This document shows positions 23,944-27,720 of a stretch of 40,174 nucleotides of DNA, one piece after another; position 1 is the stretch's first letter, and the number at the start of each line of letters is the position of its first letter. Origin of the DNA: Minisyncoccota bacterium (lineage in GTDB: Bacteria; Patescibacteriota; Minisyncoccia; Phycocordibacterales; WO2-35-19); assembly GCA_036517695.1 (NCBI GenBank), contig DATDVC010000044.1, positions 1-40,174 of the forward strand. Reading direction: 5' to 3'. A program made the position numbers and the translations under genes. A model generated the notes under the pieces. It was not told the origin of the DNA. It worked only from the letters and a program-made list of their open reading frames with translations, and did not search any database.

Positions 23944-24014
23944 GCGGGTATAGTTTAGTGGCATGATGCGACCTTCCCAAGGTTGAGACGGGGGTTCGAT
24001 TCCCCCTACCCGCA
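23944..24014 (+). tRNA. tRNA-Gly (anticodon CCC)
   Basis: 71 nt. 7-bp acceptor stem gcgggta/tacccgc; T arm ggggg-ttcgatt-ccccc; anticodon stem cgacc/ggttg with loop ttCCCaa. The D stem is weak (two G-U pairs). No CCA is encoded. Confidence 0.88.
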
Positions 24015-24244
24015 CATTAGTATACTTTTCTTACGATTTTCTGAATCTGTTATTTAGTTTTCCGATTTTGGCGGTTATAACACGTTTGTTTTTCTAATAC
24101 TGGAAATGATACGATTTTTTGAACAAAAACTGATTTAAGCCTTAAAATAAGGGTATTCTCAGCTTTTTAGATCGGTTCTAACCGGCTATTTACAAATGTC
24201 TTATTTAATGATTATATGATACGCAGAATAGATAAGGAGAACTT

Positions 24245-24721
24245 ATGCAAATCAAGCGTGTCTCTACTAGAGTAGCCCTAATTGTCTTTGGCATCGTATT
24301 CAAACTTCCAGCCTTGAGGCAAATGACTACTCATGGGCTCCGGTTTCACTACATGCGCGGGATTATCGCTAATGCATCGGAGTTTGCAACTTACATCCTG
24401 TGCAATAAAGCTTCCTTTCTGGCACCAGTTTTTAGTCTGGGCTTCGTAAGTATCTCGAGGTTTGAGAGTGGCGAGAAACCAACATGGGAGGAACTGAGGG
24501 AGATTTTTCGGAAGCTTCCACCCGACGCACAGAAACTTCTTAGATATATGAGTCGTCATCCTTTTACCCCTCAAAACTTTCGGCGAAGTAGCACCGGATT
24601 GAAAATGATCGACTTCGGCGATGGTTTTGGAGAGAGATATCCTTTATCGTACTTTCTTCGTAGATTCCACAAGGAATTTGAAGAAGTACTTAAGGAGGTA
24701 CAGACAGCGGCTATGAAATAG
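24245..24721 (+). CDS. hypothetical protein (possible minimal kinase-like fold)
   Basis: 158 aa with a good SD (ataAGGAGAacttATG). The motif order VFKLP ... SEF ... HPFTPQNF ... MIDFGD resembles the beta3-Lys, alphaC-Glu, catalytic-loop and DFG elements of protein-kinase-like folds. This is unverified. Confidence 0.5.
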   Translation: MQIKRVSTRVALIVFGIVFKLPALRQMTTHGLRFHYMRGIIANASEFATYILCNKASFLAPVFSLGFVSISRFESGEKPTWEELREIFRKLPPDAQKLLRYMSRHPFTPQNFRRSSTGLKMIDFGDGFGERYPLSYFLRRFHKEFEEVLKEVQTAAMK

Positions 24722-24743
24722 TCGCTGTTTTTGTATTAAAAAA

Positions 24744-25133
24744 TTATTTCGGTGGATATAAATATGCAGTAACAGCATCATACATTTTTTTCATTTCTAA
24801 GACATGAGGTTCGAAAGCCTTATTGAGATGTAGACACCAATAGCGGTAATTATCGTGAAAACCATAATCGTCCTCCTCAAACAGCCTTGAAGTAAAGGCA
24901 TTCCTATACTTTATCTCAATAGGCATTTGTATTTTTTGAAATAGGTCAAACCACAAGGCGTCAAATTCCTTTAATTCATCTGTACCTTTAGATGTAGATT
25001 TATCTTTATTTTCATAATATCTAGATTGGTAATGTCCATATAGTCTCAACAATATATCGTCATATTTATCTAATCCATAATCTTTGTACTTACTAAGCTC
25101 AGTTTTTATCAAAAGTGGATGTAAATTTATCAT
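24744..25133 (-). CDS. hypothetical protein
   Basis: 129-aa AT-rich ORF, rich in Tyr/Lys/Asp, with no recognisable motif. Confidence 0.45.
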   Translation of the reverse strand: MINLHPLLIKTELSKYKDYGLDKYDDILLRLYGHYQSRYYENKDKSTSKGTDELKEFDALWFDLFQKIQMPIEIKYRNAFTSRLFEEDDYGFHDNYRYWCLHLNKAFEPHVLEMKKMYDAVTAYLYPPK

Positions 25134-25260
25134 TCCCCATATTATTTATGGGATAATACTACATTCGGTTATAACTTGGTATACTAATCCTAAAATATCC
25201 TTATTTTATAACACATTTTTGATATTTAATCTGACAGAATTGAGTTTTGAATAAAATTTG

Positions 25261-25288
25261 TTGACAAAATTTTATAGTTTGATAGCAT
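25261..25288 (+). promoter_or_regulatory. strong sigma70-type promoter with no downstream ORF
   Basis: TTGACA (25261-25266), a 16-nt spacer, then TGaTAGCAT as an extended -10 (25280-25288). Confidence 0.55.
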
Positions 25289-25294
25289 TTCCCC

Positions 25295-25399
25295 TTGGAA
25301 GAGTGCGTCTAGCGGTCCTTCTTACTCCGCCTTGGAACGCCTGATGGGGAAACACTCTTCCGCCAAATTTGCCGGCGTCTCACGAGATGCCGTTTTTCT
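25295..25399 (+). ncRNA. candidate ~100-nt structured small RNA (unclassified)
   Basis: A GC-rich segment between the promoter above and an intrinsic terminator. It has a perfect 9-bp helix, GGAAGAGUG (25297-25305) with CACUCUUCC (25353-25361), enclosing 47 nt with C/U-rich stretches. The 8-nt motif CCUUGGAA occurs twice. There is no plausible coding frame. Confidence 0.45.
25373..25399 (+). terminator. intrinsic terminator of the candidate sRNA
   Basis: CGGCGUCU-CACG-AGAUGCCG (8 bp, one G-U pair) followed by UUUUUCU. It abuts the stop codon of the convergent ftsB-like gene. Confidence 0.6.
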
Positions 25400-25778
25400 A
25401 TTGGCCAAACAAGTTGCCCAAAAAATCTTTAAATTTCTGCCAACTCGATTTTTGAGGCAAAACCGATTCGGACGGAGCTTTTTCTTCCACGATAAAAGCA
25501 ACACTCTCCCCCGCTTCCGCCATGTTTAGTTTGCGACGTATTTCAAATTCAACACCCTCTTCGGTTGATAGCCGTTCTATCGATTGTTCTAAGATTTTTT
25601 TTCTTTCTTGCAATTCAGATTTTTCATTTTGCATCCGAGCCAGAGCATCCTCCGCCCCCCTCTTTTTCAAATATACATTTTTTACAGAGTGACCAAAAAG
25701 ACCGAGAAGCAAAAGCAAGAAGCAGAAAATTACAGCTCTTTTCCATCTGTTACCGCTTTTTGTTTTAACGCCACGCAT
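25398..25778 (-). CDS. septum formation initiator (FtsB/DivIC-like)
   Basis: 126 aa: basic N-terminus, one TM, a coiled coil (LARMQNEKSELQERKKILEQSIERL), then EFEIRRKLNMAEAGESV, typical of the DivIC/FtsB family. Confidence 0.7.
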   Translation of the reverse strand: MRGVKTKSGNRWKRAVIFCFLLLLLGLFGHSVKNVYLKKRGAEDALARMQNEKSELQERKKILEQSIERLSTEEGVEFEIRRKLNMAEAGESVAFIVEEKAPSESVLPQKSSWQKFKDFLGNLFGQ

Positions 25779-25905
25779 ATAATTATGTTATCATAATAAA
25801 CATATGCTTTGGCATCCCAGATCACAAAAAATATTACGATTCTTGTGGACAATAGTGGCTGTAATGGTAATTTTGGGTATGATCCTTGTTTATCTGCCCT
25901 ATTGA

Positions 25906-27720
25906 TCAGCCCTTCATCACCTTCAAAAAAACATCATGCGGAATATTTACCGAGCCTCTGGACTGCATTTTTTTCTTGCCTTTCTTTTGTTTTTCTCGCA
26001 GTTTCATCTTTCTGGTTATATCACCACCATACATATGTTGGGTGACATCTTTGCGAAAAGCGGAGATGGTGCGAGAAGAAATTATCCTGCCCAAAGCCTT
26101 GCCCTGGATCTTCACCGCTATCATCTGGCGAGGTATTAGGTTGTGCAATTTTTCGACCATGGTTTCGGCGTCCTGTTCAACCGTTCGTCTGGAAACAACC
26201 CTTGAAAAAGCGGGCTGTACTTCGTCCGCAACAAGTATGTCTAGTCTTACCACATTGGCTTCGCGCATATCTTTTATTTCGTAAGATATCGATGCATATC
26301 CGGAGGTAGCACTTTTCAGCTTGTCAAAAAAATTGCGCATAAGTTCCCGGAGTGGCATCTCTACGCGCATTTCTGTTTTATCTTCTCCGAAATTTATAGA
26401 AGTTTGGAGCTCCGCTTCGTGTTCATAAAAAAGCTGGACAAGAGCCCCAACAAAAGACGCTGGCGTGATGATCACCACAGAAGCCCACGGCTCATATATC
26501 TTTTCAAGAAGGCCTTCGTCGGGAAAAAGAGCCGGAGAATATATCATTTCTTTTTTGGGAGTTCCATCACGGTTGAGATTTTTGTAAACGACTTCATAGG
26601 TTATGGTCGGCATGGTAACTACCAACTCGAGCTTAAACTCCCTTCTCAATCTTTCCGTTATTATCTCCAAATGAAGCATGCCCAAGAAGCCACACCTAAA
26701 ACCCCTACCTAAAAGTCCCGATGATTCCTCTTCGTAGGTATAAGAAGAGTCAGAAAGTTTTAGTTTGGAAAGTGATTGTTTCAAAAGAACAAAATCATCT
26801 TGAGCTTCCGGGTAAATCGAAGCCCACACCACGGGCTTGGGAGATTGATAGCCAGAAAGAGGTTCGTCCGAGTCTGATGCGTGTGCCACTGTATCCCCCA
26901 CAGAAGCTATGCCGGGCTCTTTTATGCCAGTTACTATGTAGCCGATTTCGCCGGCAGAAAGCTTTTCTTTCTTGGTTTCTTCGGGAGAAAAAATACCAAC
27001 TTCTGTTGCGGTAAATTTTTGTTGAGCCACCTTAAAGATAAGCTCGGTATCAGCCCCCACCTCCCCCTCCATCACGCGCACAAACACCATGACCCCCCTA
27101 TGCGGAGAATATTTGAAATCAAAAACCAGAGACTTAAACTGGTCTCCCTCTGTCTTTGGAGGAGGGATTTTTTCCACCACGGTTTCAAGCAATGCCTCCA
27201 CACCTTCCCCGGTCTTGCCAGAAACAAGCAATATTTCTTCTGCGCTACAGCCCAAAAGCTCCATAACTTCGCTTCTCACTTCATCCACACGCGCAAGAGG
27301 AGAATCTATTTTACTCAAAACCGGAATAATTTTTAGCCCGGACTCTCGAGCCATATTTAGAGTAGTAAAAGTTTGGGCTTGCACGCCTTGAGTAGAGTCA
27401 ACCAAGAGTATAGACCCTTCAACCGCTTTGAGCGCCCTAGAAACTTCATATGAAAAATCTATGTGGCCCGGAGTATCTATCAAATTTAAAACATATTCCT
27501 GTCCTTCGCTTTGCTCAGGACCTCCAGGATGCCAGAGCATCCTTACGGGTTGCATTTTAATGGTTATCCCCCTCTCCCTCTCAAGCTCCATGGAATCAAG
27601 AACTTGGTCTTGCATTTTTCTCTTTTCAATTGTGCCCGTTATCTCAAGCATGCGGTCGGCCAAGGTTGATTTGCCGTGGTCAATGTGGGCTATGATGCTA
27701 AAGTTGCGTATATTCTTCAT
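25906..27720 (-). CDS. lepA: translation elongation factor 4
   Basis: 604 aa. G-domain AHIDHGKST / DTPGH / SKID, and the LepA-specific C-terminal domain (...HMYGGDITRKMKLREKQKKGKKKM). Confidence 0.95.
   Translation of the reverse strand: MKNIRNFSIIAHIDHGKSTLADRMLEITGTIEKRKMQDQVLDSMELERERGITIKMQPVRMLWHPGGPEQSEGQEYVLNLIDTPGHIDFSYEVSRALKAVEGSILLVDSTQGVQAQTFTTLNMARESGLKIIPVLSKIDSPLARVDEVRSEVMELLGCSAEEILLVSGKTGEGVEALLETVVEKIPPPKTEGDQFKSLVFDFKYSPHRGVMVFVRVMEGEVGADTELIFKVAQQKFTATEVGIFSPEETKKEKLSAGEIGYIVTGIKEPGIASVGDTVAHASDSDEPLSGYQSPKPVVWASIYPEAQDDFVLLKQSLSKLKLSDSSYTYEEESSGLLGRGFRCGFLGMLHLEIITERLRREFKLELVVTMPTITYEVVYKNLNRDGTPKKEMIYSPALFPDEGLLEKIYEPWASVVIITPASFVGALVQLFYEHEAELQTSINFGEDKTEMRVEMPLRELMRNFFDKLKSATSGYASISYEIKDMREANVVRLDILVADEVQPAFSRVVSRRTVEQDAETMVEKLHNLIPRQMIAVKIQGKALGRIISSRTISAFRKDVTQHMYGGDITRKMKLREKQKKGKKKMQSRGSVNIPHDVFLKVMKG

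Follow-up and report, generated by a model that had tools for sequence, protein, structure and literature searches.

A candidate lineage-restricted small RNA gene convergent on a divIC-like gene in Saccharibacteria

Positions 25261-25399 of contig DATDVC010000044.1 carry a compact promoter-to-terminator unit that converges on a divIC/ftsB-like gene and lacks a convincing protein-coding frame. The contig, 40,174 nucleotides long and analysed at its full length (the window), is one of 49 (C44) in a 581-kb metagenome-assembled genome that we take to be of Saccharibacteria and that is 84% complete; we refer to this genome as G000, and relatives carry codes for genomes (G001 and so on) or for loci (L077 and so on). 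We conclude that the unit is probably a real RNA gene. The interpretation that we favour, with slightly less than even confidence, is that it encodes an independently transcribed, lineage-restricted small RNA (sRNA) of about 100 nt, most likely a trans-acting regulator that would base-pair with its targets independently of an RNA chaperone. Judged from its sequence and that of its relatives, the unit is a credible but unproven candidate for a previously undescribed sRNA, ordinary in kind and narrow in distribution. Three features of trans-encoded sRNAs, namely a promoter of their own, a Rho-independent terminator and non-coding character, are all predicted here.

Architecture of the promoter-to-terminator unit

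As a sequence-only reading of this DNA had proposed, the unit opens with a near-consensus promoter, TTGACA-16-TGaTAGCAT (Table 1), which matches the consensus at 10 of 12 positions and additionally has an extended -10 element. Sites of the form TTGACA-N16-18-TAnnnT occur 30 times in G000 against 16 ± 3 in Markov simulations, and the TG-extended subset (TTGACA...TAnnnT) occurs 11 times against 1.0 ± 1.3 in 10 such simulations, an enrichment of about 11-fold. Given this excess, the TG-extended class should consist mostly of real promoters, with the promoter of the unit among them. Strict intrinsic terminators number 41 in G000, counting both strands, and the unit's promoter is the only one of the 30 to be followed by one at a distance of 40-450 nt. 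Since about 0.4 such pairs are expected by chance, the uniqueness of the pair is in itself a weak argument, and it is the orthologs that carry the case.

Downstream of the promoter the G+C content rises to 0.55 (25300-25399) from 0.24-0.27 (25100-25299), in good agreement with the GC-rich segment in AT-rich surroundings that had been described. The perfect 9-bp closing helix claimed for this segment is formed by GGAAGAGUG (25297-25305) and CACUCUUCC (25353-25361) around a 47-nt interior, and a possible additional wobble pair between U25296 and G25362 would extend it to 10 bp. Within the interior, the C/U-rich UCCUUCUUACUCCGCC (25316-25331) is mostly unpaired in the minimum free energy fold, and UGAUGGGGA (25342-25350) is shared with G001, a genome of the same genus, as UGACGGGGA. 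The sequence CCTTGGAA is present twice, at 25293-25300 and 25330-25337. The clean terminator was found as proposed: the stem-loop CGGCGTCT-CACG-AGATGCCG spans 25373-25392 and is followed by five T residues at 25393-25397. This U-tract exists on the plus strand only; read on the minus strand, the hairpin has no U-tract in either G000 or G001. The predicted folding z-score of the G000 RNA is modest, at -1.93 for a 112-nt version and -2.45 for a 110-nt version, folds as good as these being reached by 7 and 3 of 200 shuffles, respectively; the minus strand gives -0.32. Contigs from four DNA sequencing runs, compared over 24700-25900, have no listed differences in the RNA segment where they cover it; those of runs X7 and X8 cover 25261-25397 in part.

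The absence of a credible open reading frame (ORF) was also upheld. The unit holds a 13-aa frame with a GTG start and a 65-aa frame with a TTG start, the latter running through the terminator and antisense to the divIC-like gene, and neither is kept in G001. We rejected a small-peptide reading because the frames are not conserved and have no ribosome-binding site. Less fortunate was the suggestion of an alternative UUCCCC/GGGGAA pairing that would create a pseudoknot: with the start of transcription placed by promoter spacing, the UUCCCC arm (25289-25294) probably falls upstream of it, just after the -10 box, and has no counterpart in the orthologs G001 (GATATAC), L077 (TATAGTA) and G010 (TCGTTTA).

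Other TG-extended promoters in G000 are followed by structured-looking sequence without an obvious ORF, at C21:12503 (+), C49:10017 (+) and C1:12453 (-), the last being identical to C16:6942 (+). These sites may be further sRNA or leader candidates.

Orthologous units and the closing helix

We examined the regions downstream of lepA in 29 loci of relatives and in G000; 23 of these 30, that of G000 among them, proved to contain the divIC-like gene. A DivIC profile built from five proteins yielded a further 29 metagenome loci. Orthologous units, convergent on the divIC-like gene at the syntenic site, were found in G001, in G010 and in the metagenome locus L077. LepA of G001 and G010 is 86% and 84% identical, respectively, to that of G000. 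The same class of promoter occupies the same site in all three and in G002, G004 and G011, reading TTGACA-16-TGcTATCTT in G001, TTGACA-16-TGcTATACT in L077 and TTGACA-16-TGaTACAAT in G010. In the three orthologs, as in G000, the closing helix begins 7-11 nt past the -10 hexamer; in all four it starts no more than a few bases away from where transcription is inferred to begin.

The RNA of G001 starts with AGAAGAGCGG, closes with CCGCUCUUC and continues through a U/C-rich linker into an 8-bp terminator with U6; its folding z-score is -4.0, with none of 200 shuffles folding as well. The terminator stems of G000 and G001 differ almost entirely in sequence, yet each forms an 8-bp hairpin with a U-run. 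L077 retains the conserved upstream block, and its RNA starts with AGAAGAGUGAGUG, the closing UACUCACUCUUC coming 141 nt further on. In G010, the helix is formed by GGGUAAGAG and CUCUUACCC and spans 150 nt. The linker ahead of the terminator is longer and U/C-rich in G001, G010 and L077.

The contiguous closing helix measures 10, 9, 12 and 10 bp in G000, G001, L077 and G010 (the order kept below). Pairs were counted by a script anchored on AAGAG and CUCUU, since the alignment of the orthologs (A7) misaligned the 3' strand. The five pairs of the AAGAG/CUCUU core are invariant in all four sequences, and around them the pairs vary: offset +1 is GC, GC, GC and UA, offset -5 is UA, CG, UA and GU, and offset -7 is unpaired, GC, AU and unpaired. 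The distance from AAGAG to CUCUU grows from 61 to 77, 141 and 150 nt. In a trimmed alignment of G000 and G001 (A5, 74% mean column identity), RNAalifold reports one compensatory pair, a change from U-A to C-G. The motif UGAYGGGGA is common to G000 and G001, and GGGGA is found in no other ortholog. Of the whole unit, only the helix, the promoter and the terminator show signs of selection. What the sequence-only reading had hoped to find in relatives is therefore there in part: three syntenic orthologs with covarying helix pairs, but in a narrow group and around an interior that can barely be aligned. The duplicated CCUUGGAA motif to which it had drawn attention is present twice in G000 but absent from the orthologs.

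We found no further members in 39 genomes of the family, in 401 genomes of the order or in scans of two contig collections. BLASTN with the 139-nt unit against 61 relatives matched 44 genomes at E ≤ 1, all through short words that we rejected as chance; the matches at query positions 87-120 are only CCGCCAAATTTGCCGG-like words within unrelated sequence (15 inspected). An nhmmer search with the RNA against the 30 lepA-downstream regions returned the query alone. A covariance model of G000 alone (R1) missed G001 even when the filters were switched off, and a model of G000 and G001 (R2), run against the 39 family genomes, gave convincing matches in these two only. The weak R2 matches in G033 (E = 0.13) and G036 (E = 0.9) were rejected on inspection, having neither helix nor motif. 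The pattern GAAGAGYG-N30-60-TGAYGGGGANNCRCTCTTC has one match in the genome contig collection, G001's own, and none in the metagenome contig collection. A pattern of promoter plus GAAGAG matched 31 times in 29 of the 401 order genomes, compared with roughly 20 matches of a reversed control, and among 30 of these loci checked for closure, a helix of at least 9 bp was found in G000 only.

Possible function and competing explanations

We propose that a housekeeping-type promoter would start transcription straight into the 9-12 bp closing helix with its AAGAG/CUCUU core, which would clamp a fast-evolving interior of variable length and be followed by a single-stranded linker and the intrinsic terminator. 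Stable RNAs are classically shielded from exonucleases and from 5'-end-dependent nucleases by a 5' helix and a 3' hairpin, and here the two would serve in the same way, giving an RNA that is presumably both made and stable. The exposed C/U-rich stretch (UCCUU...CUCC in G000, of UUCUUCC type in the orthologs) could then pair with the AAGGA or GGAG of target ribosome-binding sites. AGGAG, GGAGA and AAGGA are the top 5-mers, other than those made of A and T only, upstream of start codons in G000; the G000 loop UCCUUCUUACUCC holds complements of both AAGGA and GGAG, and in G001, G010 and L077 UUCUUCC-type runs lie in the linker before the terminator. C/U-rich stretches of the kind that the sequence-only reading had singled out are thus present in all four orthologs, though in differing positions, and the pairing with ribosome-binding sites that it suggested is plausible but has no statistical support. 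Neither Hfq nor CsrA was found in the 84% complete G000.

Several observations weigh against this interpretation. It rests on four sequences, and the interior is essentially unalignable (A7) beyond G000 and G001. Between these two, the RNA core is 60% identical with 30 gap columns in a regional MAFFT alignment (74% in the core-trimmed A5), and its conservation does not exceed that of divIC (63%) or of the upstream intergenic block (69%). The shared 8-mer CCUUCUUA may be due to chance, with an estimated 0.2-0.5 occurrences expected. The C/U-rich stretch changes place, from the apical loop in G000 to the 3' linker in G001, G010 and L077, and the invariance of the AAGAG/CUCUU core is not what would be predicted for a purely structural clamp. 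When the loop (25310-25346) was matched to 556 putative initiation regions with RNAduplex, duplex energies were no better than those of 60 mononucleotide shuffles (minimum -35.3 against -36.2 ± 3.2; mean of the top 10 -32.6 against -31.8 ± 1.4), a result that we regard as uninformative rather than negative given that the test ignores accessibility, the shuffles keep the C/U-rich composition and the starts were crudely called. Finally, the 16 listed sequencing runs that contain the locus are all groundwater or soil DNA, and none is RNA.

We compared the unit with known RNA families. At gathering scores, Rfam reports only a tRNA-Gly in the window and nothing at the unit, and at E ≤ 10 over 25150-25500 it gives only chance matches outside or across the element. 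Twenty syntenic loci gave only tRNAs at gathering scores, and there was no match at the RNA sites of five loci (E ≤ 1) or of L077, L074 and L096 (E ≤ 0.5). The earlier statement that no known family fits was borne out, and the idea of an undescribed sRNA gains part of its support from these negatives and part from the orthologs, subject to the narrow distribution. Transfer-messenger RNA (tmRNA) is not the explanation: ARAGORN finds none in G000, and Rfam returns only tRNA in the window. RNase P RNA (RF00010) maps elsewhere in all five genomes searched, weakly in G000 (C46:2992-3310, 23 bits) and at 78-91 bits on other contigs of G001, G002, G010 and G004. A hammerhead-like CUGAUG...GAAA was rejected by eye, there being no room for stem II, and likewise has no Rfam match. 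No plus-strand gene lies downstream of the unit, which rules out a riboswitch or other cis-regulatory leader; Rfam gave no match to one either.

6S RNA was also rejected. Known 6S RNAs, about 180 nt in length, mimic an open promoter; they are rods of about 150-200 nt with a large central bubble. The unit resembles them in its closing stem, its strong housekeeping promoter and its look of an abundant orphan RNA, but it has about half the known length, lacks the central-bubble architecture and is very narrowly distributed. An RNA of about 100 nt with a 47-nt interior is far too short, and RF00013 has no match in the region or anywhere in G000 (E ≤ 10).

A divergent signal recognition particle (SRP) RNA missed by the Rfam model is the reading that we regard as effectively refuted, with next to no probability left to it. 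Its appeal lies in the size, the G+C richness and the long helix of 5' and 3' ends, all reminiscent of 4.5S RNA, and in the fact that RF00169 finds no SRP RNA anywhere in G000 or, at E ≤ 1 and with stricter filters, in any of 61 genomes from the order, while matching 13 of 14 control genomes. RF01854 has no match in G000 either. At the element itself, both strands of 25150-25500 are free of SRP matches at E ≤ 10, and the hypervariable interior is unlike the conserved helix-8 core of SRP RNA. The partner proteins are missing as well: none of 41 genomes has a match to the Ffh M domain (PF02978) and none of five has one to the SRP54 GTPase domain (PF00448), compared with matches in 14 of 14 control genomes. 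In a sample of the phylum, 48 of 121 genomes matched PF00448, all of them weakly, and the listed matches extend for the most part over the first 25-65 or so of 196 model positions; we read them as probable generic P-loop matches. SRP RNA, Ffh and FtsY were none of them found in the lineage, and the lack of a model match together with the lack of partner proteins argues that the element is not SRP RNA. Loss of both ffh and ffs has already been published for bacteria of the candidate phyla radiation (CPR): PMC4508563 reports that neither was detected in Parcubacteria, and PMC8080830 notes the same loss for 'many other CPR bacteria'. In the available part of PMC10768705, the SRP genes mentioned are those of the host bacterium only.

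The main rival to a base-pairing sRNA is a position-dependent cis element at the 3' end of divIC, firing transcription head-on into that end and acting either as an antisense RNA to read-through divIC transcripts or as a transcriptional roadblock or terminator module; its place, promoter and terminator would be under selection, but not its sequence. We consider this unlikely: it does better than the sRNA reading on the conserved position and worse on the covarying helix. The end of the unit coincides with the convergent stop codon, which its terminator U-tract abuts, and its position is kept while its sequence turns over, as in convergent cis-antisense RNAs and bidirectional-terminator modules; promoter-bearing units that differ greatly in sequence and in length (from about 110 to 425 nt) occupy the same convergent site in six of 23 GTDB loci and one of 29 metagenome loci. 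The minus strand has no U-tract after the hairpin in G000 and G001, and divIC transcripts may read through into the antisense of the RNA; such read-through is, on the other hand, a supposition. Unlike such antisense RNAs and modules, moreover, the unit has a unidirectional terminator and an RNA body wholly outside the divIC coding region, and a purely positional element would need neither a helix kept by compensatory changes nor a core invariant in four of four orthologs. The arrangement is also dispensable, since a consensus promoter is missing from the 520 nt ahead of the divIC stop in 17 of the 23 GTDB loci and 28 of the 29 metagenome loci. Similarly unlikely is that the unit is not a functional RNA at all, but a chance promoter-like sequence about 100 nt upstream of a divIC terminator hairpin, with a GC-rich palindrome in between and with ancestry accounting for the similarity of the orthologs. 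G000 is expected to hold about 0.4 such promoter-terminator pairs by chance, the whole region is 56-74% identical between G000 and G001 with the RNA core no more so than its flanks, the folding z-score is only about -2, and the 16 listed runs include no RNA. This explanation does not sit well with a U-tract on the strand of the RNA and not on that of divIC, with a TG-extended promoter kept in four of four loci while the surrounding sequence diverges, with a helix kept by double changes at three positions, or with terminator stems that have almost no sequence in common between G000 and G001 and yet form the same 8-bp hairpin and U-run.

More doubtful still is a protein-binding or housekeeping RNA, be it a scaffold, a sponge or a miniature 6S-like RNA, whose partner would recognise the invariant stem and tolerate the interior. 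Protein recognition sites typically combine a helix core of invariant sequence with a hypervariable insert next to it, the very strong promoter suggests abundance, and 6S RNA was not detected in G000 with RF00013. In its 6S version, however, this idea founders on a 47-nt interior that is unable to mimic an open promoter, and more generally the unit has no family match and no linked candidate partner gene, and with convincing R2 matches in only two of 39 family genomes its distribution is much narrower than a housekeeping RNA would show.

For the favoured trans-acting sRNA, the closest likenesses are the chaperone-independent C-rich-loop sRNAs of Gram-positive bacteria, namely the 6C sRNA of Actinobacteria (PMC6486639) and RsaE/RoxS of the Firmicutes. 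The unit shares with them its short length (about 100 nt), independent transcription, stable stem-loop, Rho-independent terminator and pyrimidine-rich unpaired stretches that could pair with purine-rich Shine-Dalgarno sequences, and no Hfq was found in G000. Unlike 6C and RsaE, the unit has no Rfam match, its exposed stretch in G000 is a C/U mixture and not a CCCC run, and the position of that stretch is not conserved among orthologs. By this analogy, we suggest that the unit may work like the C-rich-loop sRNAs of Gram-positives without being a member of their sequence families.

Saccharibacteria and other CPR bacteria have tiny genomes with few recognisable regulators and lack several universal ribonucleoproteins such as SRP. 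Among the papers listed by a limited full-text search of the literature, which is not proof of absence, none describes an sRNA in Saccharibacteria or other CPR bacteria. A validated, strongly transcribed sRNA would offer a first handle on post-transcriptional control in the group, and laboratory co-cultures of Saccharibacteria could make such an RNA accessible in a relative that can be grown. For the moment its value is modest: one candidate gene, known from four sequences, in an uncultured groundwater and soil lineage.

The divIC-convergent site and its surroundings

Table 1. Coordinates of the unit's features and of neighbouring genes in the window
Feature	Position	Strand	Remarks
sigma-70-type promoter	25261-25288	+	-35 TTGACA 25261-25266; 16-nt spacer; TG 25280-25281; -10 TAGCAT 25283-25288
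Likely transcription start	25295-25297	+	inferred from -10 spacing only
Closing helix, 5' strand (U)GGAAGAGUG	25296-25305	+	invariant core AAGAG 25299-25303
Variable interior, 47 nt	25306-25352	+	
Closing helix, 3' strand CACUCUUCC(G)	25353-25362	+	invariant core CUCUU 25355-25359
Short A/U-rich single-stranded linker	25363-25372	+	
Intrinsic terminator	25373-25397	+	8-bp stem with 5 GC pairs, 4-nt loop, U5
divIC/ftsB-like gene, 126 aa	25398-25778	-	convergent on the RNA unit; synteny anchor
lepA	25906-27720	-	murJ also on the minus strand
tRNA-Gly(CCC)	23944-24015		ARAGORN; sole tRNA on the contig

The protein encoded by the divIC-like gene matches Pfam DivIC (E = 1.2e-07) and, well short of the cut-off, NCBIfam FtsB (E = 3.1e-04); tblastn matches to it occur in the loci of 22 relatives (23 counting G000). 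The stop codon of the gene (25398-25400, minus strand) abuts the U-tract of the RNA unit, and the nearest genes downstream of the unit, namely the divIC-like gene, lepA and murJ, are all opposite to it in strand.

To compare the site across genera, we scanned all loci uniformly for exact consensus promoters that point at the divIC stop from no more than 520 nt away. Such a promoter was found in six of the 23 GTDB loci (G000, G001, G010, G002, G004 and G011) and in one of the 29 metagenome loci (L077), with a strict terminator at the stop codon in four of the six. The units of G002, G004 and G011, about 335, 425 and 180 nt long, respectively, have no recognisable similarity to that of G000 and share no ORF. 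The long RNAs of G004 and L077 reach only 40% alignment identity; the 5' domain of L077 is nonetheless orthologous to that of G000. Many loci without a promoter have a tRNA gene adjoining the divIC stop, tRNA-Gly where it can be identified. The promoter units and tRNA genes together suggest that the site is a habitual home of small stable-RNA genes. A speculative and rather improbable extension is that in one Saccharibacteria family the site is a conserved 'cradle' where a single ancestral, highly expressed RNA kept only its AAGAG/CUCUU clamp near the start site while the interior varied from about 47 to about 140 nt, that the distant units of 180-425 nt are perhaps its diverged descendants, and that the clamp would bind a protein and the insert carry lineage specificity. 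Should this 'RNA cradle' exist, it would be the first described CPR-specific RNA family, in bacteria whose post-transcriptional regulation is essentially unexplored.

Longer orphan units without an Rfam match are located at L033:710-985 (G010), L035 (G002), L037 (G004), L056 (G011) and L077:1573-1969 (-). That of G002 starts with an AGGAGG ribosome-binding site and an 18-aa frame, and that of L077 has a terminator-like hairpin about 250 nt into it.

Upstream of the sRNA promoter lies an AT-rich block (25182-25225, containing CCTAAAATATCCTTATTTT) that is near-identical in G001 and has similar counterparts in both L077 and G010. It is present as a single copy in G000 and matches extra contigs of other organisms in the DNA runs. 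The block is probably the promoter or 5' untranslated region of a divergent 129-aa gene (24744-25133, minus strand), for which no family match was found.

Besides tmRNA, the 3' end of 16S rRNA was not found in the G000 assembly in a short-motif search; gaps in the 84% complete assembly probably account for both. In the G009 locus (L034), divIC was not found downstream of lepA with the query used; there the LepA open frame extends to 738 aa, compared with the usual 604 or so, and the DNA beyond the usual stop is purine-rich and repeat-like (GGAC[GA]GAT[AG]GG...). Finally, between the divIC-like gene and lepA of G000 lies a 33-aa ORF (MLWHP..., 25804-25905, plus strand) whose C-terminal half is hydrophobic. 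It has no Pfam or NCBIfam match, is kept at the same site in G001, G010, G002, G003, G004 and G017, and looks like an unannotated small membrane protein.

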